Shown here: piece by piece, positions 9,002 through 44,161 of the stretch
Position numbering within the stretch: the first letter of the stretch is position 1
How the letters are laid out: each line of letters starts with the position of its first letter
Source of the DNA: an uncultured Gammaproteobacteria bacterium
Lineage (GTDB): Bacteria; Patescibacteriota; Patescibacteriia; UBA1558; GWA2-36-10
Direction: 5' to 3'
DNA: 64,000 bases
Assembly: GCA_964633905.1 (NCBI GenBank)
Contig: CAZWIT010000001.1
Coordinates: 141,861 to 205,860, forward strand
Position numbers and translations under genes: made by a program
The notes under the pieces: generated by a model
What the model saw: the letters and a program-made list of their open reading frames with translations, nothing else
Databases searched by the model: none
What the model was told of the DNA's origin: nothing

Positions 9002-12000
9002 ATGATTAAAAAATTATTTTCTAAGGAGTATCTAAAAGGTACGGCTAAAAGAAAAGTAGTAGCAATAATTGCTATAATTATTTCTGTCGGACTGGTGCTA
9101 GCATCGGTTTTTTATTTTTCTGGCGGCTGGGATAGATTTAAAGTAAAATTTGGCAAACAGCCGAGTTTGTTTGATGGTTTTTCTAAATTGATTTTAAATG
9201 GGGCTAATGCTCAAGATAATTTTGATTTAGAAGCAGTGGGTGCTGATAGTCTAGGTATTGATGTTGATACCAGCTTTATTTTGACTAGTAAAGATGATGT
9301 TAGTACTGAAGATGTTGAGAAAATTATTAAGCTTAGCCCAGCAATAGCTTATGCTTTGGAAGAGAAGGATAAAAACAAATGGGAAATTAAGCCTAAAGAG
9401 CCGTTAAATCCTAATGACATTATTCGTATTTCTATGGCCACGGCTTATGTGGCTGAAGAAGGTAAAGAGCAGAGTCGTTATTATGATTGGGCTTTTCAGG
9501 TAAAAGATAGCTTTAAGATTTTAAATACTATTCCGCGTGATACAGGCGTGAGCGTGCCGGTAAATTCTGGTATTGAAATCACTTTTAGCCATGAAAATTT
9601 TTATGACTATGAAAAATATTTTAGTTTAGAGCCTAGTGTTGAAGGTAGATTTGAAAAACATGGTCGTACTTTAGTTTTTGTGCCTAAAGAGCCACTAGCT
9701 CTTAGTCAGATTTATCGCGTTACTCTTAAGCAGGGATTAGCCTTGTCCGATAGCCAGGAAGTGTTAGCAAGTGATTATACTTTTGCTTTTGAAACTATCC
9801 AAAAGAAATTTCAATTAAGATCAAGTGATCGTGATCCTTGGCTTTATTTGCACGAAAAATTACAGGATTTTGCTATCAATGAAGCGCCTTTATTGTTTTT
9901 ATCAGCTATGAATATTCCCCAAGATACTCTAGAAGTAAATGTTTATCCTTTAGCTGGACAGTCTGAATATATTGAAATTTTAGATAAACGTGATCAATAT
10001 CCCTGGTGGTCTTATTCTAAAGATAATCAATTGGTAGATTTACAAAATAAAAATAAATTAAATTCTTGGAAATTAAAAATTGAACAACAAAATAACAATC
10101 AATTTATTCATTTTCCTGAAGGCTTACCAAAAGGTTATTTTGTGGTAGAAATAAAAAATGGAGATATTAATGATCAGGCAATTTTACAGATTAGTAATGC
10201 TTCGGCTTACGTAAATGTTGCTAAAGATAAAACAGTAGTTTGGGTAGCAGATTTAGCTGCTAAAAAGCCAGCCAGCAATGCCCAAGTAGAGTTATTGGGA
10301 GATAGTCAAAAATATAATGGTGATGCGCAAGGAGTGGCTAGTTTTACTACACCTGGTCAACTAACTAAAGAAGCTTTTGATAAAAAAGATAATAAACGTT
10401 ATTACTTTAAGGCTAGCTTTGGCGATGAATCATTAATTATACCAGCCTCTTATCTTTCTCCTTATTATGGTTATTGGAGTAATGATATTCAAGCAAATTA
10501 TTGGCAGTATTTTTATACTGACAGGCCTTTATATCAGCCGACTGATACGATTAAATTTTGGGGCTTGCTTAAATTAAGAAATAAACAAGATAGTAGTAAT
10601 GATCAAATGAAAGTTGAGCTTTATAAAGCTGGCTATGTTGATTATTATTATCGTCCAGTAATGATTTCTGAGCAGAGTTTAAGTATAGATAGCGATGGTA
10701 TTTATAGTGGTCAAATAGATATTAAGGATTTACGTTCGGATTATTATTATTTACAAGTTAAAGTTGGCGAGCAAATAGTAGCCACTAAGTATTTACAAGT
10801 TAATCCTTATGAAAAACCAGCCTATAACTTGACTTTAACTCCAGAAAAAAAAGCTGCTTTTGCTGGTCAAGAAATTAAATTAACAGGCTTGGCTACTTAT
10901 TTTGAGGGAACGCCAGTACCAAATTTAGCTTTAGTTTTTAATACTGGTAGTGGCTCTCAAAAAGTTACAACTGATTCAGAGGGTAAGGTTAATTTAGTTT
11001 ATACGGAAAAATATAATGATTGTCAAAGTGAATATAGTTGTTGGCCAAGGAATGCTTGGTTAGAGTTAAGGCCAGAATCATCAGAACTGGCTGATATTTC
11101 AGCTAGTGCTAGCTTAACTTTTTATGGACCTAGTGTTTATGCTACTCAAAAAGTTACTTATTCAGACACTGCTAAAGGACGTTTAGAAATTAAAACTAAA
11201 AAAGTTGATTTAAATAAAGCAGAAACTCCTTATTGGTGGGGATATGATGATAAAGAAGCGCAGATTGCTCCTAATGTAAAAATAGAAGGCGAGGTTAAAC
11301 AAATTAATTATAAGCGCATAGAAACTGGCACAGCTTATGATTTTATTAATAAAGTTTCCCATAAAACTTACCGTTATGAGCGCAGTGAAAAAATAGTTGA
11401 TAATTTTGTCGGTATTAGCGATGGTAATGGTACTTATGTTTATGAACGTCAAGTCGAGCCAGAAACATCATATGAGATTAGTTTGAAATATTATGATAGT
11501 GAAGGCAGGTATGACGTCACGCGGTCTTATATGTATTATAGCGTTGGTAATAGAATATATAATTATAATGGATATAATTTTGATTATTATCATTTAAAAT
11601 TAGACAAAGAAGAATATTCTGTTAGCGATGAAGTAGTAGTTGATTTTTTGAAAAATGAAGAAAATCTACCAAGCAATGATAATAATTATTATTTGTATTT
11701 ACAGCATCAAAATGGTCTACGCGAATATGCTGTGACTCAAAATTCTAAATATGCCTTTTTCTTTACTAATGATGATATTCCCAATGTTAATTTGACTGGA
11801 GTTTATTTTAATGGCAGGGCTTTTATAAATACTTGGGGAGATTCAGTGCGCCTTAAAAAGGCCGATAAAACCATGAGTATTGATATTAAGACTGATAAAG
11901 AAAAATATCAGCCTGGTGAAGAAGTAAAATTAGATATTGTTACTAAAAATGCTAAAGGTGAGCCAGTGAGTGCAGCCGTTAATTTGAATTTAATTGACGA

Positions 12001-14419
12001 AGCATTTTATGCGGTAATGGACGACCAGGCTCATCCGATTGAATCAATTTATACTGATGTTGGCTCAGGCGTGATTTATACTAATTTTAGTCACCGTACT
12101 GCTTCTACTGATATGATGCGAGCTAATAGTATGGGTGCAGAAAAAGGTTGTTTCTTGTCAGGTACCGATATTTTGATGGCTGACGGTAGCTCAAAGAATA
12201 TCGAAGACGTGATCGTTGGTGATCAAGTTTTGACTTTAGCTGATCCGAGGGAGAGTAGGAAAACGGTCGGTACTGTCACTGAACTATATCGTCATACGGT
12301 TGGTAAATATTTGATTATTAATAATAAGCTAAAAGTAACTCCAGAGCATTTAATTTATACTAATTTTAGCTTTCGTCCAGCTTCTAGTTTAAAAATCGGT
12401 GACTGGTTGCTGACAGCTGATAATGAATTAATCTATATTAATTCTATAGAAACTAAAGACGAAATAGTGCCAGTTTATAATTTTAGAGTGGATCCGCAAC
12501 ATACTTTTTTTGCTAATGGATTTTTTGTTCATAATGAAAAAGGTGGTGGACCTAGAGAATTTTTTACCGATGCGGCCCTATTTCAAACAGTTAAAACCAG
12601 TAGTAATGGTGCAGTAAGCACTAGCTTTAAGTTGCCAGACAATATCACTTCTTGGCGGGTAACAGCTCAAGGCGTGAGTTCTAATATTGATGTTGGTTTA
12701 AATGTTTCTAAAATTCCAGTATCTTTGCCAGTTTTTGTGGATGTTACTATTGGTAAAGAATATTTAAGTGGTGATGAGCCAGTCGCTCGTTTGCGCTCTT
12801 TTGGTTCAGTTTTAAATAGTACTGATAGTTTGACTATGAGTTTATCAGCTCCTGATTTAGGCATTGAGACTCCGCAAACTAAAACTACGACTGCTTTTAA
12901 GTCCGAGTACTTTACTTTGCCTAGTTTAAGCGAGGGTAGCTACGACATTGTTTATTCTTTAGATTCAAGTAAGGGCAAAGACAGTGTTAAGTTACCATTA
13001 AAGGCTTTGAGCTCACTACTTACTGCCCAGTCTACTAATATTCAGGAGGCAACAGCCGATTTAGTAGTAGAAAATAAATCCAAGATACCATTGGCTGTTA
13101 ATTTTTCCGATCGAGAACGTAGCGCTGTCTTTAAAACTTTGGCTAAACTGACTTGGTCCGGTGGCGCTCGGATTGATCAGGGCTTAGCTAGAAAGATGAG
13201 TAGGCAGATATTAGAAGAAAAATTTGGCTGGCATAAATCTGATCCAGAATTTTCAGCTTTTAAATATCAAATGGCTAGCGGCGGTTTGACACTTTTGCCT
13301 TATAGTAGCGAAGATCTAGAATTATCAGCTCGAGTCGCAGCTTTGCATGTCAACGGTTTTGATAATATGGCTTTAACAAATTATTTTTTCAAAAAACTTG
13401 AAGATAAAAAAAGCACTCCCGAAGAAGTGACATTGGCCTTGTATGGCTTGTCAGCTATGGGTGAGCCAATTTTACCTAGACTTGAGGCTTGGGCAAAACG
13501 CGAAGATTTAAAACCAAAAGAACGTTTATATTTAGCTTTAGCTTATTATCAAGCTGGCTCTAGTGAAAAAGCGCGGGATATTTATTTTAATATTATGGAG
13601 CAATATGCCCAGGTTAAAGAGCCGCATGTTATTGTTAAAGTTAGTGATAACGAAGATGAGGTGTTAGAATTTACTACTTTAACAGCAGTGCTGGCAGCTT
13701 ATTTAAATGAAGCGCAGCAATATGGCATGATTGATTGGTTGCATTACTATCGACCTAATGATATTTTGTTATATTTAGAAGATTTAAATTATGCCATTGC
13801 TCACTTGCATAATCTAACGGACACTAACAGAAGTGTTAAATTTAGTGTTAACAATGAAGAAGTGACAGCTGAATTGAAGATGCCAAGCTTTTCTTATGCT
13901 TTTGAGTTAGCGGCGGGGCAGTCGTTAAAAGTTTTAAACGCTGATTCAGATATTATGTTGGCGACTAGTCAGCCAGTGCCGATTAGTCTTAGTGATATTA
14001 CTCCTGATGCTAGTCTGGTTTTAAAAAGAGAATATTTTGTAAATAATAAAAAAGTTAATACTTTTAAAGAAAATGATTTGATTGAAGTTAGATTATATAC
14101 TGATTTTAAAGAAGGCGCTTTAGATGGTTCTTATCAGATTACGGATGTGTTGCCAGCTGGCTTGTTGCCAATGAGCAGAGTCTATAATGGCTATAAGACT
14201 GAGGATTGTCATTATTATTACCCTTATTATTTAGAAGGACAAAAAGTAAAATTTATAGTTAGTAAAAATTGGAAGAAAAGTGTTTGCTCTGACTATATTA
14301 AATACTATGCTCGCGTCAAAACCAAAGGTAAATACAGGGCCGAGCCAGCTATTATACAATCAATGCTCAATAGTGATTATCTAAATTTTTCTAGTGAAGA
14401 TAAGGTGCAGATTGAATAA
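9002..14419 (+). CDS. giant (1805 aa) membrane-anchored extracellular multidomain protein; possibly alpha-2-macroglobulin/Ig-like-domain family, with embedded Hint/BIL domain
   Basis: Single uninterrupted ORF; N-terminal TM anchor; long beta-rich middle; helical C-terminal third; no CxEQ thioester motif, so the A2M assignment is tentative. Confidence 0.8.
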   Translation: MIKKLFSKEYLKGTAKRKVVAIIAIIISVGLVLASVFYFSGGWDRFKVKFGKQPSLFDGFSKLILNGANAQDNFDLEAVGADSLGIDVDTSFILTSKDDVSTEDVEKIIKLSPAIAYALEEKDKNKWEIKPKEPLNPNDIIRISMATAYVAEEGKEQSRYYDWAFQVKDSFKILNTIPRDTGVSVPVNSGIEITFSHENFYDYEKYFSLEPSVEGRFEKHGRTLVFVPKEPLALSQIYRVTLKQGLALSDSQEVLASDYTFAFETIQKKFQLRSSDRDPWLYLHEKLQDFAINEAPLLFLSAMNIPQDTLEVNVYPLAGQSEYIEILDKRDQYPWWSYSKDNQLVDLQNKNKLNSWKLKIEQQNNNQFIHFPEGLPKGYFVVEIKNGDINDQAILQISNASAYVNVAKDKTVVWVADLAAKKPASNAQVELLGDSQKYNGDAQGVASFTTPGQLTKEAFDKKDNKRYYFKASFGDESLIIPASYLSPYYGYWSNDIQANYWQYFYTDRPLYQPTDTIKFWGLLKLRNKQDSSNDQMKVELYKAGYVDYYYRPVMISEQSLSIDSDGIYSGQIDIKDLRSDYYYLQVKVGEQIVATKYLQVNPYEKPAYNLTLTPEKKAAFAGQEIKLTGLATYFEGTPVPNLALVFNTGSGSQKVTTDSEGKVNLVYTEKYNDCQSEYSCWPRNAWLELRPESSELADISASASLTFYGPSVYATQKVTYSDTAKGRLEIKTKKVDLNKAETPYWWGYDDKEAQIAPNVKIEGEVKQINYKRIETGTAYDFINKVSHKTYRYERSEKIVDNFVGISDGNGTYVYERQVEPETSYEISLKYYDSEGRYDVTRSYMYYSVGNRIYNYNGYNFDYYHLKLDKEEYSVSDEVVVDFLKNEENLPSNDNNYYLYLQHQNGLREYAVTQNSKYAFFFTNDDIPNVNLTGVYFNGRAFINTWGDSVRLKKADKTMSIDIKTDKEKYQPGEEVKLDIVTKNAKGEPVSAAVNLNLIDEAFYAVMDDQAHPIESIYTDVGSGVIYTNFSHRTASTDMMRANSMGAEKGCFLSGTDILMADGSSKNIEDVIVGDQVLTLADPRESRKTVGTVTELYRHTVGKYLIINNKLKVTPEHLIYTNFSFRPASSLKIGDWLLTADNELIYINSIETKDEIVPVYNFRVDPQHTFFANGFFVHNEKGGGPREFFTDAALFQTVKTSSNGAVSTSFKLPDNITSWRVTAQGVSSNIDVGLNVSKIPVSLPVFVDVTIGKEYLSGDEPVARLRSFGSVLNSTDSLTMSLSAPDLGIETPQTKTTTAFKSEYFTLPSLSEGSYDIVYSLDSSKGKDSVKLPLKALSSLLTAQSTNIQEATADLVVENKSKIPLAVNFSDRERSAVFKTLAKLTWSGGARIDQGLARKMSRQILEEKFGWHKSDPEFSAFKYQMASGGLTLLPYSSEDLELSARVAALHVNGFDNMALTNYFFKKLEDKKSTPEEVTLALYGLSAMGEPILPRLEAWAKREDLKPKERLYLALAYYQAGSSEKARDIYFNIMEQYAQVKEPHVIVKVSDNEDEVLEFTTLTAVLAAYLNEAQQYGMIDWLHYYRPNDILLYLEDLNYAIAHLHNLTDTNRSVKFSVNNEEVTAELKMPSFSYAFELAAGQSLKVLNADSDIMLATSQPVPISLSDITPDASLVLKREYFVNNKKVNTFKENDLIEVRLYTDFKEGALDGSYQITDVLPAGLLPMSRVYNGYKTEDCHYYYPYYLEGQKVKFIVSKNWKKSVCSDYIKYYARVKTKGKYRAEPAIIQSMLNSDYLNFSSEDKVQIE
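12149..12535 (+). other. Hint (intein-like / BIL) domain, about 129 aa, inside the giant CDS (C1050..N1178)
   Basis: Block A CFLSGTDILMADG, block B TPEH, block F/G VYNFRVDPQHTFFANGFFVHN; the residue after HN is Glu, not C/S/T. Confidence 0.7.
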
Positions 14420-15318
14420 TGAAGTTAGTAGTTAAAATAATAATCGTTTGTGTTATTTGTGGGGCACTAATAATTTTTAGTGCCTTTTGGCGTCGTGATT
14501 TTGATCAAGTTAACTTAGAGGATAATACAACTACTTTATTTTTAAGACCAATTGAATCACAGGCAATGTTTTATGATCCTATGAATTTTCAGCAGGCGAT
14601 ATTGTCAGCAGAAAATGTGCATTCTAAAAATAATATACAAGCGATTATGGTGCCACAGCATCTAGTAGCTTCTAGTTTAATGGCTCAAGCAATAAAGCAA
14701 GCGGCTGGCCGTGAGATTGAAACAGTCTTTATTATTGGACCTAATCATTTTAATGTTGGTACTGCGGATATTGCGACAGCTAGGGCAGTTTGGAAAACAG
14801 ACTTAGGTGATGTCGAAAGCGATACAAAATTGGTTAATAAATTTATCACAGATTTAAATTTACTCTCTGGACCGGAAATCTTTAGCAACGAGCATGCTGT
14901 TGGCGCTTTGGTGCCTTTTGTAAAATATTATCTACCGCAAGCCAGAATCGTGCCAATTGTTTTTCGTTCTTATGCTGATTTAGGCGATGTGGATCAAGTA
15001 GTAAATTGGTTAGCTGATAATTTACCCAAAAAAAGTTTAGTTATTTATTCTATTGATTTTTCCCATTATTTACCTAGGGAGCAAGCAGATGAAATGGATA
15101 AATTGACTAGAGAATATATTATCAATAATGATTTAGACCAGATCATAAAATTAGGCGATGATAATTTAGATTCACCAGCTAGTCTGGCTACGGCTTTATC
15201 TTTAGCGCAGAAAAAAAATTGGCACTTAGAAATTGTAGCCAATAAAAATTCGGATGATTTTACTAAAGTGAAGTCAAAACAAACTACTAGTTATTTTTTA
15301 ATTAATTTTTCGGATTAG
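14419..15318 (+). CDS. MEMO1 / AmmeMemoRadiSam-system protein B family (class III extradiol dioxygenase-like fold), with N-terminal TM
   Basis: 299 aa; GPNH and NEHAVGALVPF motifs; start codon overlaps stop of giant gene (TAATG). Confidence 0.5.
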   Translation: MKLVVKIIIVCVICGALIIFSAFWRRDFDQVNLEDNTTTLFLRPIESQAMFYDPMNFQQAILSAENVHSKNNIQAIMVPQHLVASSLMAQAIKQAAGREIETVFIIGPNHFNVGTADIATARAVWKTDLGDVESDTKLVNKFITDLNLLSGPEIFSNEHAVGALVPFVKYYLPQARIVPIVFRSYADLGDVDQVVNWLADNLPKKSLVIYSIDFSHYLPREQADEMDKLTREYIINNDLDQIIKLGDDNLDSPASLATALSLAQKKNWHLEIVANKNSDDFTKVKSKQTTSYFLINFSD

Positions 15319-17400: not shown

Positions 17401-18681
17401 ATGAAAATAAAAAGTATTGAAGCGCTAGAGATTTTAGACTCACGTGGTAACCCGACTGTCGAAGCTAGTGTGATTTTAGAAGATGGTTCTGTGGGCAGAG
17501 CAGCGGTGCCATCTGGTGCTTCCACTGGTAGCTATGAAGCTGTCGAATTACGTGATAATGATCCCAAGCGTTATAATGGTTTAGGTGTTTTAAATACAGT
17601 TAAAAATATTGAAACTATTATTGCCCCAGCTTTAGTGGGTCTTGAAGCAGGTGAGCAAAACCAGATTGACCAAGTTATGATTGATTTAGATGCTACTGAT
17701 AATAAAGCTAAGCTTGGCGCTAATGCTATTTTAGCAGTATCTCTGGCTACTGCCCGTGCTCAAGCTGAGTCAGAAAAAAAACCACTCTATGAATATTTAA
17801 GTAAATTTAATCCTGATTTTGCTGGCGATTATTTTTTGCCTTTGCCTATGATGAATATTATGAATGGCGGTAAGCATGCTAATTGGGCAACTGATATTCA
17901 GGAATACATGATTTTACCAATTGGCGCTAAGAATATGACTGATGCTGTTAGGATGTGTGCAGAAGTATATTTTAACTTAAAGAAAATTTTAAAAGCCAAA
18001 GGCTATGAAATCAGCGTTGGTGATGAAGGTGGTTTTGCACCAGCTGTCAAATCAAACAGTGAACCATTTGAATTAATGTCAGAAGCTGTACAAATTGCAG
18101 GCTACACCTTAGGTACAGATATTATTTTTGGCATTGATGCAGCTGCTACTGAGTTTTACCAAAATGGTGTTTATGAACTTAAAAAAGAAGCTAAAAATTT
18201 AAATAGTGCCGAACTAGCTGATTTTTATTTAGAAATTATTAAAAAATACCCAATCAAAACCGTGGAAGATATTTTTAGTGAAGATGATTGGAATGGTTTT
18301 AAAGATTTTTTAAACAAAACTGAAAATAAGATCCAGATTGTTGGTGATGATTTGTATGTGACTAATATCAAACGCTTGCAGCAGGGCATAGACACTAAAG
18401 CTTCTAATTCAATTTTAATCAAATTAAATCAAATCGGCACACTTAGCGAAACTATTGAGGCTATACTTTTGGCTCGTAAAAATAACATGACAGCTGTTAT
18501 TTCCCATCGTAGTGGTGAAACTGAAGACGCTTTTATTGCCGATCTTGCAGTAGCTTTAGGTACTGGGCAAATAAAGACAGGCGCACCAGCGCGTAGTGAA
18601 CGTACAGTAAAATATAATCGTTTACTTAAGATAGAAAAAGAATTAGGCGCCAAAGCTATTTTAAAGAAATTTCCTTTTTAG
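17401..18681 (+). CDS. eno: enolase (phosphopyruvate hydratase)
   Basis: 426 aa; the whole sequence is colinear with enolase (SRGNPTVE..., SHRSGETED). Confidence 0.95.
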
Positions 18682-18682
18682 T

Positions 18683-20188
18683 ATGTCAAATAAAGTAGTT
18701 TTAGTGATTTGTGATGGCTTGGGTTATCGAGAAGCCAAAGAACACAATGCAGTGCTGGCAGCAGACACTCCTAATTTAGATAGTTTTAAAGCCAGTTTCC
18801 CTTTTGCCCTTTTGGCAGCCAGCGGTGAAGCTATTGGCTTGCCCGAAGGGCAGATGGGTACCTCCGAAGCCAATCATCTAGTAATTGGTTCAGGTCGGAT
18901 TATTTATCAAAATTTAGTTAAAATAAATCGGGCTGCTAAAAATAAAGAATTAGAAAGCAATTCAGCTATTTTGGAAGCTTTTGAGCATGTTAAAAAACAT
19001 AATAGCGCTTTACATATCAAAGGTATGGTGTCAGATGGCGGCGTCCATGGTCATATTGAGCATCTAAAAGCTTTAGTAGCAGCTGCTAAAGTGCATGGTG
19101 TTAGTAAAATATTTTTACATTTATTTACCGATGGTCGCGATGTAGCTCCGCAAAGTGCTAAAAATTATATTCAAGATTTAGAAAACTTTTTAGAAAACGC
19201 TGGTGTTGGTAAAATTGCTTCCTTGGGTGGCAGATATTGGGGTATGGATAGAGATAATAATACTGATAGAATTGAAAAACATTTTTTGGTCATGACTAGG
19301 GGTTCCGAGCAAAAATTTAAAAAGGCCTTAGATATTATCGAGCATAATTATCAGGCTGGTTTAAATGATGAATTTATTGAACCAGCTTCGATAGAGCTTG
19401 AGGAAGAAGGTGAGGGCTTAATTGCTGCTAACGATGCAGTAGTGTTTGCTAACTTTCGTTCTGATAGAGCCAGGCAGATTACTAAAAGGATCATTGATGA
19501 AAGAATTGATAATCTAAAATATGTAGCTATGACCAAATACGATGACGAATTAGATGTTCGCGTTGCTTTTGGTCCAGAAGAAATTAATAATTGTTTAGCG
19601 GAAGTTTTAGCTAAGCGCAATTTGAAACAACTAAAAGTTACCGAAACAGAAAAATTTACGCACCTGACTTTTTTCTTTAATGCGCAAAGATATGAGCCTT
19701 GGGAAAAAGAAGAGCGGATTATGATTGCCAGTAATAAAGATGTGAAAACTCATGATGAAAAACCAGTAATGAAAGCTAAAGAGATTGCTCAAGCTGTAGT
19801 GTCAGCTATTGAAAGTGATCAATATGATTTTATTGCGGTCAATCTTACTAATTGCGATATGGTGGGACATTCTGGCAATTTTCCAGCTATTGTCAAAGCA
19901 GTTGAGGCAGTGGATAGTGCCTTAGGTGAGATTGCGCAAAGTGCTTTAAAACAAGCTTATACTTTATTAATTACGGCTGATCATGGTAATGCTGAAGAAA
20001 CTTTTGATCCAAAAATAAACCAAGCCATCACTTCGCACACTCTCAATGCAGTACCGTTTTATTTGATTTCAAAAAAGTATGATAAAATAAAGCGTAGTCA
20101 AGGAAACTTGAGTGATGTAGCGCCGACTATTTTGAAATTAATGGATTTAGAAATTCCAGCGGAAATGACAGGTGAGTCATTTGTTTAA
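18683..20188 (+). CDS. gpmI: 2,3-bisphosphoglycerate-independent phosphoglycerate mutase
   Basis: 501 aa; iPGM N- and C-terminal motifs (VLVICDGLG, ADHGN). Confidence 0.9.
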   Translation: MSNKVVLVICDGLGYREAKEHNAVLAADTPNLDSFKASFPFALLAASGEAIGLPEGQMGTSEANHLVIGSGRIIYQNLVKINRAAKNKELESNSAILEAFEHVKKHNSALHIKGMVSDGGVHGHIEHLKALVAAAKVHGVSKIFLHLFTDGRDVAPQSAKNYIQDLENFLENAGVGKIASLGGRYWGMDRDNNTDRIEKHFLVMTRGSEQKFKKALDIIEHNYQAGLNDEFIEPASIELEEEGEGLIAANDAVVFANFRSDRARQITKRIIDERIDNLKYVAMTKYDDELDVRVAFGPEEINNCLAEVLAKRNLKQLKVTETEKFTHLTFFFNAQRYEPWEKEERIMIASNKDVKTHDEKPVMKAKEIAQAVVSAIESDQYDFIAVNLTNCDMVGHSGNFPAIVKAVEAVDSALGEIAQSALKQAYTLLITADHGNAEETFDPKINQAITSHTLNAVPFYLISKKYDKIKRSQGNLSDVAPTILKLMDLEIPAEMTGESFV

Positions 20189-20204
20189 AATTATTAGCAA
20201 ATAA

Positions 20205-20250
20205 AATAACCTCACTGGCATGTCGCATTTAGCACAAGTGAGGTTATACT
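20205..20250. terminator. bidirectional intrinsic terminator
   Basis: aacctcactgg...ccagtgaggtt hairpin between convergent genes. Confidence 0.5.
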
Positions 20251-20267
20251 ATTAGCTAGAAGCTTGC

Positions 20268-20453
20268 TTATTTCTTTTTTTGCTGATGATGTCGCCAGTC
20301 CAATGCAAGCATGGTTAGCAGATAGGCGCATGCTGGGCCCGTGCCATAAATATCTTTTATTATCCAGCCTAGGGCAGTGATAGCTGCCGCAATGAGAAAG
20401 CGGGTAGTTTCGCTCTTTAGGCCGTAAAACCAGTGAAAAAAACGACTGATCAT
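20268..20453 (-). CDS. small membrane protein (61 aa from internal ATG with AGGAG SD; 80 aa if from first ATG)
   Basis: Minus-strand ORF; SD AGGAGCAAGG precedes ATGATC; one TM helix; GC above local background. Confidence 0.35.
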   Translation of the reverse strand: MISRFFHWFYGLKSETTRFLIAAAITALGWIIKDIYGTGPACAYLLTMLALDWRHHQQKKK

Positions 20454-20546
20454 CCTTGCTCCTGTCGTTTGGGTTTGATGAACAAATTTAATTAATAACA
20501 TATTTTTCATTTTTTGTCAATCATAATATAAAAAATAAATATATAT

Positions 20547-21980
20547 ATGCATAAAAAACAAACCAAAATTATTGCAACTATTGGGATTAAACGCGATCCA
20601 GAATTTATTGAGGCCATGTATCGGGCTGGGACTGATGTGATGCGCTTAAATACTGCTCATCAAGATTTAAAAGGGTCTTTGGTAGTTATTAATAATATTA
20701 GGAAAGTTTCTGATCGGATTGCTATTTTGCTTGATACCAAAGGTCCAGAAGTAAGATTCACACAGCTTGCAGAAGATTTGTCTTTGCGCAAAGGGGATCT
20801 GCTCAAAATTTGCGGCACTGGTGATAATCTGCTTTCTACTAGGGATATGGTTTATGTTAATTATGCTAATTTTCATAAAGACATACCATTGCAGGCTGCT
20901 ATTTTTGTTGATGATGGTAAAATGGAACTCAAAGTAGAAAGAAAAAATAAGAATTATTTGCTTTGTCGGGTGACTAATGATGGTCTAATAAAATCAAATA
21001 AAAGCGTCAATGTTCCGGGAGTGCATTTAAATTTGCCAACCTTGAATAAAAAGGACAAAGAATTTATTAATTTTGCTATTAAACATAAAATTGATTTTAT
21101 TGCCCATTCTTTTGTGAGAAACAAAGAAGATATTATTACTATTCAGAAAATATTAGACGCTAAAAAAAGTAAAATAAAAATTATTGCCAAAATTGAAAAT
21201 CTCGAGGGAGTCGAACATATTGATGAAATTTTAGAGCATGCTCACGGTATTATGGTAGCTAGAGGCGACTTAGGCATTGAAATTGCGGCTGAAGAAATTC
21301 CGCTGATTCAAAAAGAAATTATTAGAAAATGTATTATTAGTCACAAGCCAGTAATTGTGGCTACGCAGATGCTACAATCCATGGTGCATAACCCGCGACC
21401 AACTCGAGCCGAAGTTTCTGATGTGGCTAATGCAGTGATTGATGGTGCAGATGCAGTCATGCTTTCTGAAGAAAGCGCTAGCGGCAATTATCCTTTGGCA
21501 GCAGTAGAAATCATGACTCGGATTGTCAGGCGTGTAGAGATTAGTAATGAAAAACATCATTTTAGTAATTTGCCGGAGATTAATACTAAAAATAAAGTAG
21601 CTCATTATTTGATTTCGTCAGCAGTACAGGCGACCAAAGAATTGGATATCAAAGAAATTATCATGACTTCTACTAGCGGTCATAGTGCTCAAGTAATGGC
21701 TTCGTATCGTGGTCGGACACCAGTTTATGTCAAATGTTTTGACAAAACTATTGCTAGACAATTAGCTTTGACTTATGGTATCAACGCTCACTATGTCAAA
21801 AAAGAGCAGGATCATCGTAAATTTATCACAGAATTGTTTAAATATTTAGTTAAAAAAGAAAAACTTGAACTCCAAGATCAGGTCATATTTTTGGCTCGCG
21901 ATATTGGTAAGGGCTCAGGCGCTACTTTTATGGAAATTTGCCAGGTAGCTGATTATGTTAAATTAAAATCAGGTAAATAA
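20547..21980 (+). CDS. pyk: pyruvate kinase
   Basis: 477 aa; PK barrel motifs (MVARGDLGIEI, TQMLQSM). Confidence 0.9.
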   Translation: MHKKQTKIIATIGIKRDPEFIEAMYRAGTDVMRLNTAHQDLKGSLVVINNIRKVSDRIAILLDTKGPEVRFTQLAEDLSLRKGDLLKICGTGDNLLSTRDMVYVNYANFHKDIPLQAAIFVDDGKMELKVERKNKNYLLCRVTNDGLIKSNKSVNVPGVHLNLPTLNKKDKEFINFAIKHKIDFIAHSFVRNKEDIITIQKILDAKKSKIKIIAKIENLEGVEHIDEILEHAHGIMVARGDLGIEIAAEEIPLIQKEIIRKCIISHKPVIVATQMLQSMVHNPRPTRAEVSDVANAVIDGADAVMLSEESASGNYPLAAVEIMTRIVRRVEISNEKHHFSNLPEINTKNKVAHYLISSAVQATKELDIKEIIMTSTSGHSAQVMASYRGRTPVYVKCFDKTIARQLALTYGINAHYVKKEQDHRKFITELFKYLVKKEKLELQDQVIFLARDIGKGSGATFMEICQVADYVKLKSGK

Positions 21981-28655: not shown

Positions 28656-30233
28656 ATGTCTGAAGAACAAAAAAGATTATTAGAAAAACAGCTTTGGAAG
28701 GTTGCTGATGTTTTACGTGGCAAAATGCATGCCGATGAATATAAAAACTATATTCTCGGTTTTATTTTTTATAAATATCTTTCTGAAAAATTAGAGCTTT
28801 TTGTAAACGATAAATTATTAGCTAGTGAAAAATTTATTTTTTCTGAGATTAAAGAAGATACTAAGCTTGGTAAAGAAAATCTCAGGCATATCGAAATTGC
28901 TTGTACTGATCAGCTAGGATTTTTTCTAAGACCAACGGAGCTTTTTTCTTATTTAGTTAAAAAGGGTAAAGGTGAGATTAAAGGCGAAGAATCTTTTATT
29001 TTGGAAGATCTTAAAAATGTTTTAAACGATATAGAAAAGACTTCGGATGGTACAGCTAGCGAGGATGATTTTAAGGGTTTATTTGATGATATGGACCTTA
29101 CTTCTTCTAAACTCGGTTCTCGTGAAAGTGATAAAAATGAAGTTGTAGTTGAGATACTCAGTTTACTCAGTGGTATCGATTTTAAACTTAAGGATTCAAA
29201 AAGCGATTTACTTGGCGATGCTTATGAATATTTGATCGGTGAATTTGCGGCTGGTGCTGGTAAAAAGGGTGGTGAATTTTATACACCTGCTCAAGTATCA
29301 CGCTTACTAGCTCAAATTGTTTCTGTAGATAAAAAACGTATCAAATCAGTCTATGATGCCGCTTGTGGTTCTGGTTCGCTTTTGTTGCGTCTAGGTGAGT
29401 TTACTGATGTAGTCAATTATTATGGGCAAGAGCTCAATCCAACTACTTATAACTTGGCTCGTATGAATATGATCTTGCATGGCGTGCACTTTGATCATTT
29501 TTCCATCCGCCAAGGTGATACACTCCGAGAGGATATGCACCCTGATTTGAAGGCTGAAGCTATAGTCGCTAATCCACCATTTGCTGCTCAATGGAAAGGA
29601 GATACGGATCCAGCTTTAGCGCATGATGATCGTTTTTCTCAATATGGTCGGTTAGCGCCAAAGAGCGCGGCTGATTATGCTTTTGTTACTCACATGCTTT
29701 ATCATCTGGCTGACAATGGTACTATGGCAATTGTCTTACCTCATGGTGCACTTTTCCGTTCTGGTGCTGAGGGACATATCCGTAAGTATATTATAGAAAA
29801 ACAAAATTATCTTGATGCGGTGATAGGATTGCCGGCCAATTTGTTTTATGGCACTTCTATTCCAGCTACTGTTTTAGTGTTTAAGAAATGCCGTCGTGAG
29901 GATGAAGATATTTTATTTATTGATGCTTCCAAAGAATTTGAAAAAGTAGGTAATCAAAATAATCTTAGTGACGAAAATATTGCCAAGATTTTTGATACTT
30001 ATAAAAATCGTAAAGAAATAGCCAAATATTCCCACAAAGCTTCTTTAGCTGAAATCAAGGAAAATGAATATAATCTCAATATTCCACGTTATGTAGATAC
30101 TTTTGAAGAAGAGGAATTGGTAGACATTGGTCAAGTTGCAAAAGATTTGAAAGATTTATCTAAGCAAGAAGTAGATTTGCAAAATAAAATAGCAGAATTT
30201 TGTGAAGAATTAAAAATAGATAAGCCTTTTTAG
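28656..30233 (+). CDS. hsdM: type I restriction-modification system, methyltransferase subunit
   Basis: 525 aa; HsdM N-terminal domain, motif I DAACGSGS, motif IV NPPF. Confidence 0.9.
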   Translation: MSEEQKRLLEKQLWKVADVLRGKMHADEYKNYILGFIFYKYLSEKLELFVNDKLLASEKFIFSEIKEDTKLGKENLRHIEIACTDQLGFFLRPTELFSYLVKKGKGEIKGEESFILEDLKNVLNDIEKTSDGTASEDDFKGLFDDMDLTSSKLGSRESDKNEVVVEILSLLSGIDFKLKDSKSDLLGDAYEYLIGEFAAGAGKKGGEFYTPAQVSRLLAQIVSVDKKRIKSVYDAACGSGSLLLRLGEFTDVVNYYGQELNPTTYNLARMNMILHGVHFDHFSIRQGDTLREDMHPDLKAEAIVANPPFAAQWKGDTDPALAHDDRFSQYGRLAPKSAADYAFVTHMLYHLADNGTMAIVLPHGALFRSGAEGHIRKYIIEKQNYLDAVIGLPANLFYGTSIPATVLVFKKCRREDEDILFIDASKEFEKVGNQNNLSDENIAKIFDTYKNRKEIAKYSHKASLAEIKENEYNLNIPRYVDTFEEEELVDIGQVAKDLKDLSKQEVDLQNKIAEFCEELKIDKPF

Positions 30234-30238
30234 CTACT

Positions 30239-30868
30239 ATGTCTTATATATTTTTGGATGAAAGTGGAGATTTAGGGTTTAAGCCGACGTCAAGCAAGTG
30301 GTTTATTTTTACTATTGTTTTGGCTAGCCACCACAAAAAGATAGAAAAAGTTATTAAAAATATTAGAAAGAGCTTAAAAAAGAAATATAAAATAAAAGAA
30401 TTACACGCTTATCATGCAGATCCGCTTACTAGGCATAGGATGCTAAAAAATTTAGCCGAGCTGGAAGATTTGAAAGTACTTTGTGTTATTTTGAATAAGA
30501 AAAAAGTTTATACTGATTTACAGAATCAAAAAAATTATTTATACAATTATACGGCTAATATTTTGTTAGATCGTTTGCATAATAAAAAATTAATTAAAAC
30601 AGATGAGCCAATAAATTTGTATATTGATAAAAAAGATACTAACAAATTTATTAGGAATAATTTTCAAAAATATTTAGAAGATAATCTTTTAAAAAGAGGT
30701 AATAGTGGTAAGATTGAAATAAAAATAAAAGCCTCGCATACAGAAAAGTGTTTGCAAGCAGTTGATTTTGTAAGCTGGGCTATTTTTAGAAAATACGAAA
30801 AAAACGATTATGAATATTATAATGATATCAAAGATAAGATTATAGAAGAAAATTTATTGTTTTCTTAA
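30239..30868 (+). CDS. DUF3800-family protein embedded in R-M operon
   Basis: 209 aa; N-terminus MSYIFLDESGDLGF characteristic of DUF3800. Confidence 0.55.
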   Translation: MSYIFLDESGDLGFKPTSSKWFIFTIVLASHHKKIEKVIKNIRKSLKKKYKIKELHAYHADPLTRHRMLKNLAELEDLKVLCVILNKKKVYTDLQNQKNYLYNYTANILLDRLHNKKLIKTDEPINLYIDKKDTNKFIRNNFQKYLEDNLLKRGNSGKIEIKIKASHTEKCLQAVDFVSWAIFRKYEKNDYEYYNDIKDKIIEENLLFS

Positions 30869-31045
30869 AAAGAAAACCCCCTGCTTTGACGAGACGCCTT
30901 ACGGTATCTCAACGCAGGAGGAATTACATCTATTTATAATATACATAAATTGTTTAATCTTGTCAACATAAGATTATAAGATTATAAATTTATAACTAAT
31001 ATAAGATAAAATTAATATATAGTCTGGGAATAATAGTGTTAAAAT

Positions 31046-32221
31046 ATGTTAAATAAGCATAATAAAATAAATATTAAAAACAACGTCCCCAAACTCCGTT
31101 TTCCGGGTTTTTCTGGTGAGTGGGGTGAGAAAAGATTAGGCGATTGTTTAGATTATGAACAACCAACAAATTATATTGTTCATAGTACAGAATATAATGA
31201 TTCTTATAAAACTCCCGTATTGACAGCTGGTAAAAGCTTCATTCTTGGCTACACAAATGAAGAGGATGATATTTTTGATAATTTACCAGTTATTATATTT
31301 GATGATTTTACAACTGCCTCTCAATTTGTTGATTTTCCATTTAAGGTTAAATCTTCAGCTATGAAAATTTTAAAACCAAAAGATAGATTGGACATTAGAT
31401 TTATTTTTGGTGCAATGAGTCAAATAAAATATAAAATTGGTGGTCATGGTCGACATTGGATTTCAAAATATTCAAATATAAAATTTTTTATACCAAATAA
31501 TAACAAAGAACAACAGAAAATCGCTGAATTTTTAGGGTCAATTGATGAATGGATAGAAAATCTAAAAAATCAAAAAAAATCTTTTGAAGCTTATAAAAAA
31601 GGCTTGATGCAAAAAATATTCTCACAAGAAATAAGATTTAAAGATGATAGCGGCAAGGATTTTCCGAAGTGGGAGGAAAAGAGGTTGGGAGATACAGGGG
31701 AAGTAATTACTGGCTCTACACCGCCAACAGCTAATAAAGAGTATTATAATGGTACTTTTCCATGGATAACACCTACGGATATAAATCATTCTAAAAATAT
31801 TTATTCGTCAGCAAAACTTTTGACGAAAAAGGGGTTAAGTGTAGCTCGTTTAATCCCTAAAAATAGTTTATTAGTCACCTGTATTGCGAGTATTGGTAAA
31901 AATGTAATTTTAAGATTAGATGGAAGTTGTAATCAGCAGATTAATGCTATTTATCCTAATAAAAATAATGACGTAGATTTTTTATATTATCTTGTAGAGA
32001 AGAATAAAAATATTTTAATAAGGTTCGCTGGTGCTGGTGGGATGCAAATGTTAAACAAGAAGGATTTTTCTAATTTAACTTTTAAAATTCCCACTATTGG
32101 TGAACAACAAAAAATTGCTGAATTTTTAGGCTCAGTTGATAATTTAATAGAGTCAAAAGAGAAACAGGTTAGTCAGGCTGAACAATGGAAAAAGGGGTTG
32201 ATGCAGAGATTGTTTGTATAA
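31046..32221 (+). CDS. hsdS: type I R-M specificity subunit
   Basis: 391 aa; two target-recognition domains each followed by conserved QQKIAEFLGS...L.. KKGLMQ repeat. Confidence 0.85.
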   Translation: MLNKHNKINIKNNVPKLRFPGFSGEWGEKRLGDCLDYEQPTNYIVHSTEYNDSYKTPVLTAGKSFILGYTNEEDDIFDNLPVIIFDDFTTASQFVDFPFKVKSSAMKILKPKDRLDIRFIFGAMSQIKYKIGGHGRHWISKYSNIKFFIPNNNKEQQKIAEFLGSIDEWIENLKNQKKSFEAYKKGLMQKIFSQEIRFKDDSGKDFPKWEEKRLGDTGEVITGSTPPTANKEYYNGTFPWITPTDINHSKNIYSSAKLLTKKGLSVARLIPKNSLLVTCIASIGKNVILRLDGSCNQQINAIYPNKNNDVDFLYYLVEKNKNILIRFAGAGGMQMLNKKDFSNLTFKIPTIGEQQKIAEFLGSVDNLIESKEKQVSQAEQWKKGLMQRLFV

Positions 32222-32227
32222 AAAATT

Positions 32228-33055
32228 ATGACAGAAGAAATTAGACAAAATGAAACTGGTATTTTATTTGATGGATCAAAATTTGAGATAACTCATGACA
32301 TCTTGCCTATTTTTTATTTTTTGAAAGGGATAGAAATCGAGATTGAAAATATTTTGGGGTTTGACAATAAATTAGAAAAATTGAGATCTGGTTATTTAGA
32401 AATTTTTAATTTTACTAAATTTCTTGCAGAAAAATTAAAAGAAAACAACATTAATTTTGAGTACAATTTGAATCACAATTTATTTTCGTTAATGGATGAG
32501 TTTCATTTTAATTCACCGGACAGATCACAGATGATATCTTTATTTGCTAGTTTAGAAGTATTATATTTTTTATATATTTCATATGAGCAAGAGACTAGTA
32601 ATGACGATATTTTAAGAAAAATAGCGATGAGTGAAAAAAAATTTTATAGTAGATTTATCAGGACTTTTCTTTTCACAGATCAAAATCAATATTACTTAGA
32701 AAATAAAGAAAGATTGAATAAGATAGACCCGATAAAGATAAGGAAATTAAGAAACTCATTAACACATTTTTTTTCTTTAGCACCAGGAGGATTATCTATA
32801 GCTCCGAGCAATGAGTATGAAAAAGCAAGGCGTTTAGAAAAAAAATTACAACAGGATAAAAAAGGTTATATAGTTTTTATTTCAACAAAAGATTTGTTTG
32901 AATTAATTAAATTTGCAAACATTTTAATGTTTAAAAAATGGAGCGATGATTTTTTGTTGTCTCCAAATGATTTTCGTAGAAAAATTCAGTATGTTATTAC
33001 TGTAGTTAGGGATAATGGTGCAGTTATTATAATGAATAAAGATTTAAAAATTTAG
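32228..33055 (+). CDS. hypothetical protein, possible HEPN/Abi-like (Rx4H motif RNSLTH) between hsdS and hsdR
   Basis: 275 aa; RKLRNSLTHF matches Rx4-6H HEPN signature; position typical of embedded defence genes. Confidence 0.4.
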   Translation: MTEEIRQNETGILFDGSKFEITHDILPIFYFLKGIEIEIENILGFDNKLEKLRSGYLEIFNFTKFLAEKLKENNINFEYNLNHNLFSLMDEFHFNSPDRSQMISLFASLEVLYFLYISYEQETSNDDILRKIAMSEKKFYSRFIRTFLFTDQNQYYLENKERLNKIDPIKIRKLRNSLTHFFSLAPGGLSIAPSNEYEKARRLEKKLQQDKKGYIVFISTKDLFELIKFANILMFKKWSDDFLLSPNDFRRKIQYVITVVRDNGAVIIMNKDLKI

Positions 33056-33058
33056 TTT

Positions 33059-42754: not shown

Positions 42755-44161
42755 ATGCTTATAATGAAATCGAAAAAAAATAAAGTAAAAAATGTTTTAC
42801 CTCAAACTATAAAAATTTCTTCGCTAGTTACAAGTAATGGTTTTAGGATTGGCTTTGGCAAAAATAAAAAATACGGTGTTAAATATCAGTCAAAAATATT
42901 TTCAAGTTTGAGTCCAGCTCAAGCTAAAATATTGGCTGATAATTTTGTTTATGCGCGTACACGCCAATTGACTTTTAGATTGGATAGTGGTTTGGCTTAT
43001 GATTTTTCTAAGCCACTAATGGCTGCTTTTACTGACTATGGTATTAATACTGATTTAGGTAAAATTGCTGATTTAAATAAGCTAAGCACTAAAGCTTTGC
43101 TAGCTGATTTTAAAAAGGCTAAGATTAGCTTTAATTTAGCTAAAAAATCAGCTTATTTGGCTCCGCTAAAAAGAAGTCAGTCTAATCAATTTATTTTGGC
43201 TATGTCTTTTGGTAAAGATAGTCTATTATCCTATGGTCTAGCTCGAGAATTGGGTCTAAATTTGCATTTGGTTTTTGTTAAAGAAATGGAAAATTTAAAT
43301 AGTGAAGAGGCTAGGCACAAAAATCAAATTATCAAAGAATTTACTAAACAAGAAAAATTAAAGCTTGATTATTTGTATGATAATGCTGACGAGATTTTTT
43401 TGGCTAAAGAATTAAGCAAAGATATTCACGAGTTTGATAATACTAATGGTATGCTGGCTTTTATGTTGGAGCTTTTGCCCTTGGCTTATTATCATCGGGC
43501 TAAATATGTAATTTTGGGCAATGAAGCTAATTTTATGGATAGCTTTATCAATCACGATGGTCATCGGGCTTATCCTTCCTTTGATCAATCTATTGTTTAC
43601 GCTAAAAAACACAATCAACATTTAGCCAGATTAACTAAAAATAATTTGCAGTCTGTCAGCTTAGTAGAACCGATTTATAATTTGGCAGAAATGCATCTTT
43701 TGTATCATTGTTATCCTGATCTATTAAAATTTGTTATGTCCTGTTCACCGGAAAAGCCCAATAGTGAACGTTGGTGTTATGATTGTCCAATGTGTGCTAA
43801 GGCCTTTTTGTATTCTTGGGCAGTAGGGGGTGATCCTAAACTGATAAAATTTAGTAAAGATTTTTTTGCTCAAGAATATCAAGGACTTTATCCTTTATTT
43901 GCTAAAAAAATTACTCGTGCTTATGAAAAACCCAAAGCAGTGCGTGATGAGCAATTACTGGCTTTTCTACTGGCTTATCAAAACGGCGCCCAAGGCTATT
44001 TGATTGATTTATTTGTACGTGATTATTTGTCAGAAGCTAAAAAAAGAGCCAAATCATTACGCGCTAAATTTTTTGGTATTCATCCTAGCACAACTATTCC
44101 TACAGAATTTAAAACTAAGTTATTAAATATTTACAAGCAAGAACTTAAAGGACTCTTATGA
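42755..44161 (+). CDS. PP-loop-like ATPase superfamily protein (SFGKDS variant of SGGxDS; C-terminal CxxCxxC), divergent
   Basis: 468 aa; motif MSFGKDSLLS; CYDCPMCAKAF near C-terminus as in QueC-like enzymes. Tentative. Confidence 0.4.
   Translation: MLIMKSKKNKVKNVLPQTIKISSLVTSNGFRIGFGKNKKYGVKYQSKIFSSLSPAQAKILADNFVYARTRQLTFRLDSGLAYDFSKPLMAAFTDYGINTDLGKIADLNKLSTKALLADFKKAKISFNLAKKSAYLAPLKRSQSNQFILAMSFGKDSLLSYGLARELGLNLHLVFVKEMENLNSEEARHKNQIIKEFTKQEKLKLDYLYDNADEIFLAKELSKDIHEFDNTNGMLAFMLELLPLAYYHRAKYVILGNEANFMDSFINHDGHRAYPSFDQSIVYAKKHNQHLARLTKNNLQSVSLVEPIYNLAEMHLLYHCYPDLLKFVMSCSPEKPNSERWCYDCPMCAKAFLYSWAVGGDPKLIKFSKDFFAQEYQGLYPLFAKKITRAYEKPKAVRDEQLLAFLLAYQNGAQGYLIDLFVRDYLSEAKKRAKSLRAKFFGIHPSTTIPTEFKTKLLNIYKQELKGLL

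Follow-up and report, generated by a model that had tools for sequence, protein, structure and literature searches.

An A-type bacterial intein-like domain in the bait loop of a thioester-less alpha-2-macroglobulin from candidate phyla radiation bacteria

What becomes of a molecular trap when a self-processing domain sits in its trigger? The alpha-2-macroglobulins (A2M) and the complement proteins are spring-loaded traps, fired by a protease cut in their bait, while Hint domains work as single-turnover machines, each of which, via a thioester, cuts its own flanks or joins them again. The question is raised by a 64,000-nucleotide stretch of DNA, here called the window (positions 141,861 to 205,860, forward strand, of contig CAZWIT010000001.1 in GenBank assembly GCA_964633905.1), in which one gene on the + strand (9002..14419) encodes an 1805-amino-acid (aa) protein with a 129-aa Hint domain that extends from Cys1050 to Asn1178 (12149..12535, +). 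By sequence comparison, this domain is almost certainly a catalytically complete Hint of the A-type bacterial intein-like (BIL) or PT-HINT kind, fixed and vertically inherited, in the C-terminal end of the bait of a membrane-anchored A2M that lacks the thioester, the bacterium being one of the Patescibacteria. A Hint fixed in the trigger loop of an A2M joins two well-studied mechanisms, and the problem is what the one does to the other.

The Hint is encoded within an uninterrupted open reading frame (ORF), with Cys1050 as its first residue, Asn1178 as its last and Glu1179 immediately after it. Its in-frame translation, CFLSGTDILMADG ... VTPEH ... VYNFRVDPQHTFFANGFFVHN, matches exactly the coordinates and residues quoted in an earlier note on this DNA, which had described a BIL-type Hint with all four splicing blocks (A, B, F and G). 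That description is borne out by profiles, by structures in PDB and by a structural model. When the 129 aa alone are compared with Pfam, PT-HINT (PF07591) is matched with E = 2.8e-11 and 44.3 bits, above its cut-off of 27.7, so that the profile check proposed in the note is positive; Hom_end_hint is matched with E = 2.6e-8, and intein_Cterm of NCBIfam with 22.8 bits (cut-off 15.6). In a phmmer search of PDB the best match, end to end and with E = 2.5e-10, is 2LWY, a 'bacterial intein-like domain', below which rank the BUBL BIL2 domain of Tetrahymena and RecA mini-inteins. AlphaFold, given aa 860-1300 and 38 homologues, yields a model with a mean predicted local distance difference test score (pLDDT) of 85.7, with 87-97 in the Hint portion. 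The best Foldseek matches of this model are again BIL domains, namely 6Y75 (E = 1.6e-10, template modelling (TM) score 0.79-0.82, 26-28% identity) and 2LWY (TM 0.84, root mean square deviation 1.9 Å, 31% identity); the gp41-1 intein is matched with TM 0.84, and later matches to A2M, A2ML1, C5, CD109 and ECAM correspond to the flanks of the Hint. No second Hint and no second A2M was found elsewhere in the window.

The catalytic residues follow the order expected of the family. Cys1050 (TGT, 12149..12151, +), a conserved residue, is the block A nucleophile, which by the chemistry of the family (PMC4031507) would perform an N-S acyl shift at the Gly1049-Cys1050 bond. Block B has Thr-Pro-Glu-His at aa 1113-1116 (12338..12349, +), with T-x-x-H conserved in the alignment, and blocks F and G, VYNFRVDPQHTFFANGFFVHN (12473..12535, +), align with the C terminus of 2LWY and end in His1177-Asn1178, the predicted site of Asn cyclisation. 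The set of residues is therefore complete for both reactions: Cys1 together with the block B Thr and His for the N-S acyl shift, and the terminal His-Asn for Asn cyclisation. The C-extein starts with Glu1179-Lys1180-Gly-Gly-Gly (12536..12550, +), i.e., with a non-nucleophile at position +1, and when a nucleophile is missing there, the branched intermediate cannot form.

How general this junction is can be read from 89 clusters of A2M-hosted Hints and from genome loci, the latter being the best 80 of 295 matching stretches, 78 of them with complete junctions. Residue 1 is Cys in every cluster (89/89) and every genome locus (80/80), the terminal His-Asn is found in 89/89 clusters and in 78/78 complete genome junctions, and the T-x-x-H of block B is kept in 89/89 clusters. 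Gly precedes the Hint, at position -1, in 88/89 clusters and 77/80 genome loci, and G^CF, where the caret here and below marks a junction, occurs in 88/89 clusters. The length is 129 aa in 88/89 clusters, and in the genome loci mostly 129 aa with a few cases of 128-131 aa, in agreement with the earlier statement that there is no homing-endonuclease insert. Over the 89 clusters, the +1 residue is Asp in 41, Glu in 25, Gln in 13, Ala in 4, Thr in 3, and Gly, Ser and Asn in 1 each; Ser stands at +1 in 4 of the 78 complete genome junctions. Asp, Glu, Gln or Ala thus account for about 95% of members, and Ser or Thr for about 5%. The Glu at +1 that the earlier note pointed out, in place of Cys, Ser or Thr, is confirmed as Glu1179, and a non-nucleophilic residue is the norm of the family; a Ser, Thr or Cys conserved at +1 of the orthologues, which would have spoken against a BIL, is not what the homologues have, and the BIL reading stands.

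It could still be imagined that a frameshift or an assembly error masks a +1 nucleophile, or that the domain is a dead structural insert, for which the unusual +1 residue itself is the sole indication. The ORF is intact, an identical protein is recorded from independent assemblies, and the same junction occurs in these and in more than 160 homologues, among them a locus (L007) about 95-97% identical over the Hint region with the same VHN^EKGGGPREFF. Furthermore, the catalytic residues are all kept, the ratio of nonsynonymous to synonymous substitution rates (dN/dS) is 0.03, and the GC content of the Hint, overall and at third codon positions (GC3), is that of the remaining gene. A masked nucleophile is rejected on these grounds, and to artefact or dead insert taken together we give practically no credence. 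The two closest relatives, P0002 and P0003, at 74% identity, differ by a 4-aa insert downstream of the Hint; their junction is HN^T(T/A)GAEKGG, with Thr at +1, so that these two proteins could, judged by their junctions, splice as canonical inteins. The same insert duplicates the whole GAEKGG motif.

By these sequence and fold characters, all of which it has, the domain is to be classed as an A-type BIL in the definition of PMC4031507, after Amitai 2003 and Dassa 2004. With canonical class 1 inteins it shares the in-frame insertion at a conserved site that is free of insert in other homologues, but membership of that class is rejected on account of Glu at +1 and of non-nucleophiles in about 95% of homologues. 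A B-type BIL is rejected, as block G with its His-Asn is present and invariant. A Hedgehog or Hog domain has the G^CF seen here, but the 129-aa length, the His-Asn end and the missing C-terminal sterol region exclude it. A polymorphic toxin, finally, is rejected, the C-terminal part of the protein consisting of conserved A2M domains with neither a toxin tip nor an immunity gene.

The host had previously been taken for a membrane-anchored surface protein. The anchor and the extracellular bulk remain probable, with a single N-terminal hydrophobic helix as the likely anchor, while the generic identity gives way to that of an A2M-family protein of type II-like character, supported by the ORF, by Pfam and by a profile built from Hint-less relatives. 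The helix, aa 19-39 (VVAIIAIIISVGLVLASVFYF; 9056..9118, +), follows Lys/Arg residues, has the top Kyte-Doolittle window (3.02) and is the sole strongly hydrophobic segment of the protein; it is probably a signal anchor, in which case the predicted topology leaves the remainder outside the cell. Pfam finds, in addition to Big_5, bMG3 and MG2, the A2M bait-region domain A2M_BRD at aa 864-1004 (PF07703, E = 1.1e-11; 11591..12013, +), modelled as beta-strands with pLDDT 85-96, and after the bait the A2M macroglobulin (MG) domain at aa 1192-1258 (PF00207, E = 7.7e-9; 12575..12775, +), with the motif LPDNITSWR that is invariant in the family. A weak bMG10 match (PF17973, E = 9.6e-4, under the cut-off) marks a C-terminal macroglobulin domain at aa 1674-1789 (14021..14368, +), where the profile of Hint-less relatives aligns through the C terminus of ECAM. 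Over nearly full length, this profile matches Escherichia coli ECAM (YfhM) with E = 1.7e-86 and Salmonella A2M with 6e-81, and it also matches TEP1, human A2M, CD109 and C3/C4/C5. The architecture of the A2M superfamily is therefore complete: a chain of MG domains, a bait-region domain, a helical domain resembling the thioester domain (TED) and a C-terminal MG domain.

What is lacking in this architecture is the thioester. No CxEQ motif was found in the Hint-bearing members and their near relatives, where the column that is CxEQ in distant, thioester-bearing A2Ms reads W-x-x-G-x-R-x-[D/E]-Q. In the present protein the degenerate site is WSGGARIDQ (aa 1385-1393; 13154..13180, +), in the helical TED-like domain, with the Cys replaced and [D/E]-Q retained. 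Without CxEQ, the host counts as a type II A2M in the sense of PMC5764988. Its Cys residues are 674/680 and 1736/1762, which means that there is no Cys pair able to bridge the two fragments that a cut in the bait would leave. That the host is an A2M with the Hint in its bait changes the functional reading of the Hint.

The bait loop comprises aa 1000-1049 (11999..12148, +; pLDDT 50-77), delimited by alignment with Hint-less relatives and ECAM, and ends in a conserved G-A-E-K-G with Gly1049 at position -1. Within it the variable stretch aa 1037-1046 (model residues 178-187) has pLDDT below 50, and the ten residues downstream of the Hint have a mean of 54, so that both flanks of the Hint are probably flexible and the model suggests a folded domain hanging in a loop. 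When about 20 Hint-less relatives are aligned, the region reads ...SH(x6-10)GGAEKGG^[E/D]GGGxR.DF.D..., and the Hint is a clean insertion at the caret, giving ...GGAEKGG^C-Hint-HN^EKGGGPREFFTD... in the Hint-bearing proteins. As the Hint-less relatives have [E/D] across the site, the acidic +1 is the ancestral residue of the site. The length of the bait loop otherwise varies freely among relatives. Directly abutting both ends of the Hint is a perfect 9-bp direct repeat, GAAAAAGGT, encoding Glu-Lys-Gly (12140..12148 and 12536-12544, +), and recombination between its two copies would, as read from the sequence, delete the Hint precisely.

The same site can be located in well-studied members of the superfamily, with the proviso that in Gly-rich loops the alignment may be off by a few residues. 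The profile of Hint-less relatives starts to align at residue 729 of human A2M, residue 765 of C5 and residue 95 of the C4 alpha-chain. We take the human bait to be residues 690-728 (UniProt numbering), which would place the start just past the bait, and in C5 and C4 it presumably lies a few residues past the C5a and C4a scissile bonds (UniProt numbering likewise assumed). It follows from these starting points that the Hint occupies the place of the bait and the anaphylatoxin domain. In a profile alignment with ECAM, the site corresponds to ...R-F-G-G^D-G-D-E-L-K-R-G-G.... The numbering offset of ECAM is set from Arg923-Leu942, the disordered bait of the cleaved protein (PMC4498604), which is RYGADIYDIYGQVIEGQGRL and places Arg956 in ELKR; in cleaved ECAM, Arg956 contacts the C-terminal MG domain (PMC4498604). 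By this alignment, the Hint is about 7 residues past the protease-sensitive stretch, and within the segment that, by the mechanism proposed for ECAM, fires the trap when it is untethered (PMC4498604).

How widespread the arrangement is depends on how it is searched for. A search with the full protein gives 49 clusters (at 90% identity) in which the Hint has the same position; their identity ranges between 74% and 30%, and their lengths are 1766-1944 aa, apart from one truncated at 1293 aa; named members include Magasanikbacteria, Parcubacteria and similar. With the Hint alone, an exhaustive phmmer search retrieves 9074 representatives at E<=1e-3 (a word-indexed search gives 2 matches), and among the retrieved proteins there are 103 A2M-hosted Hints, with Cys1 and the His-Asn end at each complete junction that was inspected. 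A scan with one genome per species gives the 295 matching stretches mentioned above, the best 80 of which are all Hint-bearing, and the labels of these 80 include Magasanik-, Uhr-, Falkow-, Doudna-, Peregrini-, Peri- and Gracilibacteria, lineages of the candidate phyla radiation (CPR). The taxon labels of many metagenome-assembled genomes are unreliable, and such labels as 'uncultured Gammaproteobacteria', which the present contig has, or 'Nanoarchaeia' look like placeholders or mis-binning. Family sequences have been public since at least the CPR genomes of 2015 (e.g., KKQ28136.1 / A0A0G0JJ95), and some members are named 'polymorphic toxin-type HINT domain-containing protein' by NCBI, a name that describes the domain only. 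Among the Hint-less relatives there is also a group from Clostridia (P0065, P0066, P0069, P0070, P0072, P0077, e.g., from Acetivibrio cellulolyticus) with a dockerin type I domain and with longer bait loops that lack the AEKGG motif; these A2M-like proteins are, from their domains, probably attached to cellulosomes.

The history of the insertion can be followed by comparing the Hint with its host. In a host tree from which the Hint has been removed, a single clade takes in 81 of the 83 Hint-bearing proteins, with three Hint-less proteins (P0049, P0053 and P0083) nested inside it; the junctions of two of these, AEKGGGGGGP in P0049 and DYGGKGGGGA in P0053, have the appearance of deletions between the EKG(G) repeats on either side of the Hint. 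In a tree of 273 related Hints, all 103 A2M-hosted Hints form one exclusive clade, the support for which is moderate, since it has at most 4 intruders in 5/8 bootstrap replicates. Hint and host distances are correlated (Mantel r 0.59, reached by 0/999 permutations), and the Hint diverges at 0.67 times the rate of the host. In comparison with L007, dN/dS is 0.029 for the Hint (dS 0.93), 0.031 upstream and 0.056 downstream. Together these observations point to one ancient capture, after which the Hint has mostly been passed on vertically, has now and then been lost precisely and has been under strong purifying selection. A recent horizontal insert is rejected, since the Hint does not differ in GC and GC3 from the rest of the gene and Hint and host distances correlate.

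What, then, does a catalytically complete Hint do in a bait? In A-type BILs, an N-terminal thioester forms and the C terminus is cleaved by Asn cyclisation, and in those that have been tested cleavage products dominate, although the freed amine can still ligate the flanks via the thioester (PMC4031507, PMC7664689). The earlier view that BILs cleave instead of ligating is consequently right about cleavage, but not about an exclusion of ligation, as A-type BILs are able to splice as well, by amine attack (PMC4031507). By analogy with these domains, the present Hint most likely excises itself after export. When the protein has been exported and folded outside the cell, Cys1050 would attack the carbonyl of Gly1049, and the ensuing N-S acyl shift would give a Gly-Cys thioester; Asn1178 would cyclise, with His1177 assisting, and cut the Hint from Glu1179. 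With the two junctions processed independently, the 14.5-kDa Hint would depart from the bait loop, and the thioester would mostly be hydrolysed, as in the tested A-type BILs. The products would be a membrane-anchored N-fragment ending in ...AEKG and a C-fragment beginning with EKGGGPREFF, associated non-covalently; alternatively, part of the population, or on the rival view most of it, may be re-joined by amine attack on the thioester.

Self-cleavage of this kind would be a built-in, protease-independent equivalent of bait cleavage, and would probably govern the conformational state of the macroglobulin. That cleavage dominates, and that the result is a two-chain, still-associated macroglobulin with an internal substitute for bait cleavage, is the outcome that we favour, tentatively and at somewhat less than even confidence. 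It is favoured because of the bias of the tested A-type BILs, because the intact Hint has long been retained in a loop that tolerates changes in length, because the two fragments of MagD, a type II A2M, stay together after bait cleavage (PMC5764988), and because no Cys pair bridges the fragments. The suggestion in the earlier note, that the domain might release or rearrange the C-terminal helical third of the protein, is by the same token divided: release is unlikely, as bait-cleaved A2M fragments stay associated (PMC5764988), and rearrangement is more plausible.

Several observations weigh against predominant cleavage. Constitutive self-cleavage of the bait discharges the trap before any protease has arrived, which is hard to fit with the classical role of an A2M. 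The flanks keep the ancestral motif, which precise removal of the Hint restores, and the Hint-less proteins nested in the Hint-bearing clade imply that an uninterrupted chain is viable, and ligation accounts for this no worse than cleavage does. Plain hydrolysis gives no obvious part to the Lys that is nearly invariant at +2 or +3. A purely selfish splicing element, too, would be expected to conserve its catalytic residues, and the trees are neighbour-joining only, with 8 bootstrap replicates.

A rival account is that the Hint is a splicing element without function for its host. In that account, the freed alpha-amine of Glu1179 attacks the thioester and restores ...GAEKG-EKGGGPREFF..., so that the mature protein would be an ordinary type II A2M and the Hint a long-lived passenger. 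The insertion splits a motif that is conserved in Hint-less relatives, with the ancestral E/D retained at +1; the nested Hint-less members resemble precise deletions between the flanking EKG(G) repeats; a functional trap needs an intact bait; and the required amine attack is documented for A-type BILs (PMC4031507). Moreover, Thr is found at +1 in two close relatives, and a single mutation makes BILs efficient splicers (PMC7664689). Against all this, cleavage is dominant in the tested A-type BILs (PMC4031507, PMC7664689), and a passenger without homing endonuclease in a length-tolerant loop should often decay, yet the Hint is 129 aa long and intact across several CPR classes. On balance, we regard a mere passenger as rather unlikely.

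The Lys after the terminal Asn deserves separate consideration. Of the 89 A2M-hosted Hints, 72 have it at +2 and 15 at +3, so that +2/+3 accounts for 87/89, and as Lys321 it is an invariant column of alignment A2, while at the equivalent place of the Hint-less relatives, in the alignment with about 20 of them, there is none. In 207 non-A2M Hints of the same clade, Lys is at +1 in 136 and within +3 in 169. Whatever the host, a Lys close behind the terminal Asn is a mark of this Hint clade. The nearest of these non-A2M relatives have 2-11 tandem Hints, joined by very short linkers, HN^K-G-G^C; among the tandem-Hint proteins (P0124, P0127, P0128, P0130, P0132, P0134), some have PKD, laminin-G, MopE or Tim44-like domains. 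The conserved post-Asn Lys is, from these sequences, best explained either by a model of amine attack or by a role in C-terminal cleavage.

In its most specific form, amine attack would mean that the epsilon-amino group of Lys1180 (+2) attacks the Gly1049 thioester and gives a branched Gly-Lys isopeptide, while Asn cyclisation frees the Hint. There is a precedent, in that BUBL BIL2, the best Foldseek match, resolves its thioester with a Lys epsilon-amine and forms an isopeptide between Lys-epsilon-NH2 and the C terminus (PMC8616854). The N-extein ends in Gly-Gly and so resembles ubiquitin-like donors, and the Lys is, as described, nearly fixed in A2M-hosted Hints, frequent in Hints of the same clade from unrelated tandem-Hint proteins, and missing from that place in Hint-less relatives. 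This support is correlative, the identity to BUBL BIL2 is only 26-28%, and another task is conceivable for the Lys, either in tuning Asn cyclisation or in the bait once it has been cleaved. Isopeptide re-ligation is, in our judgement, distinctly improbable.

The nucleophile could also come from outside. If a lysine of a docked protease or an amine of the envelope resolved the Gly1049-Cys1050 thioester, the target would become covalently tied to the membrane-anchored N-fragment, and the Hint would thereby functionally replace the lost CxEQ. The family is without CxEQ, only 3-12 residues would separate the thioester from the disordered stretch where the bait is most variable, and Hint thioesters are known to be resolved by other molecules, i.e., by cholesterol in Hedgehog (PMC7664689) and by substrate lysines in BUBL BIL2 (PMC8616854). 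At the same time, the Hint-less sister proteins manage without such a thioester, and neither the conserved His-Asn nor Lys+2 is required for capture in trans, which leaves this mode of capture very doubtful. The wider proposal, that a Hint-made thioester stands in for the lost CxEQ thioester, whether it is captured by Lys+2 or by docked-protease or envelope amines, is by the same analyses unlikely. Cleavage into two associated chains remains the outcome that we prefer, in the graded terms given above.

Among the genes next to the host is a conserved partner. Directly downstream is a gene for a Memo / AmmeMemoRadiSam-B-like protein with an N-terminal hydrophobic helix (14419..15318, +; PF01875, E = 3.7e-21; TIGR04336, E = 2.2e-31), the start of which overlaps the stop of the host gene. 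A Memo-like gene is directly downstream of the A2M gene in 5/5 loci inspected, Hint-bearing and Hint-less alike (elsewhere, L002 15635-16543, L004 10928-11791, L005 9224-10093 and L006 10932-11846), often overlapping the A2M gene, and tblastn finds it at 44/80 genome loci. From this gene order, A2M with Memo-like protein would seem to make up a third type of A2M gene module in bacteria, different from those with pbpC and magABCDEF. The upstream neighbour of the host gene is TypA/BipA.

Further away, the window encodes a DsbD-type membrane domain fused to redoxin and thioredoxin-like domains (40651-42330, +), and a second DsbD_TM gene is found upstream of the locus (L001 1-872); thiol reduction outside the cytoplasm could be of importance to an exported Hint, the catalytic Cys of which has to be kept reduced. 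There is a type I restriction-modification system at 28656-35860 (+), with HsdM at 28656-30233 and HsdR at 33059-35860. The other genes examined have the look of ordinary chromosomal ones, with enolase, iPGM and pyruvate kinase at 17401-21980, PGA_cap at 105-1238 and a double ATP-grasp ligase at 44158-46578; there are also 2 tRNAs, and the overall GC content is 33.9%.

A literature search found no paper that links Hint or BIL domains with A2M. CPR papers on A2M-like proteins, including PMC8080830 and PMC9793634, read these large surface proteins as defence against host proteases, with no mention of Hint or intein. This suggests that what is new here is the place of a known self-processing module, the trigger loop of an A2M, a position that is both conserved and suggestive of a mechanism and of which no description was found. 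Strong selection has kept the arrangement in at least 80 CPR genomes at the species level, from several labelled CPR lineages. If cleavage is what happens, the protein would be a self-firing or conditionally firing macroglobulin, a natural analogue of the removal of C3a and C5a; if Lys ligation is, the isopeptide-forming chemistry of BILs would extend to bacteria; and if the Hint thioester replaces CxEQ, thioester-based covalent capture would have been invented a second time, independently, within one superfamily. Either of the two outcomes, cleavage or ligation, bears on the reading of CPR A2M-like surface proteins as anti-protease defence, and the compact, extracellular 129-aa self-processing module may be of use in protein engineering.

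The protein can, finally, be placed among known systems by considering its two parts in turn, the trap and the machine. With the type I proteins E. coli ECAM (YfhM) and Salmonella A2M, the host has homology over almost its full length, and in ECAM the insertion site corresponds to RFGG^DGDELKR956; ECAM differs in its CLEQ thioester, its pbpC neighbour, the lack of a Hint and its external protease trigger. With the type II protein MagD of Pseudomonas aeruginosa, the host shares MG domains, bait, a TED-like domain and a C-terminal MG domain without CxEQ, as well as membrane association. Unlike MagD, it is found in monoderm-like CPR bacteria without a magABCDEF operon, no mag-like genes being seen among its neighbours, and it has an N-terminal helix anchor and the Hint in its bait. 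In complement C3/C4/C5, the anaphylatoxin (ANA) domain is likewise an extra globular domain at the equivalent point of the A2M fold, the removal of which activates the protein, but ANA has an unrelated fold and is removed by convertases and not by itself, so that the analogy is one of position only. As for the Hint, BUBL1 BIL2 of Tetrahymena thermophila (6Y75 / 6TMM) is the top structural match, with a donor Gly before Cys1 and no +1 nucleophile; it differs in being eukaryotic and cytoplasmic with ubiquitin-like flanks, whereas isopeptide chemistry is here only putative. The best sequence match in PDB is BIL4 of Clostridium thermocellum (2LWY), with which the Hint shares the fold, Cys1, the block B His, the VYNF...HT...VHN C terminus, the mini size, the lack of a +1 nucleophile and an extracytoplasmic host. 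Known BIL and PT-HINT domains belong to variable secreted proteins or precede the toxin tips of polymorphic toxins of the CdiA/Rhs type (PMC4725963), while here the place is a macroglobulin bait loop; and, unlike known BILs, this Hint has been inherited vertically with its host across many CPR lineages and keeps a conserved Lys at +2.

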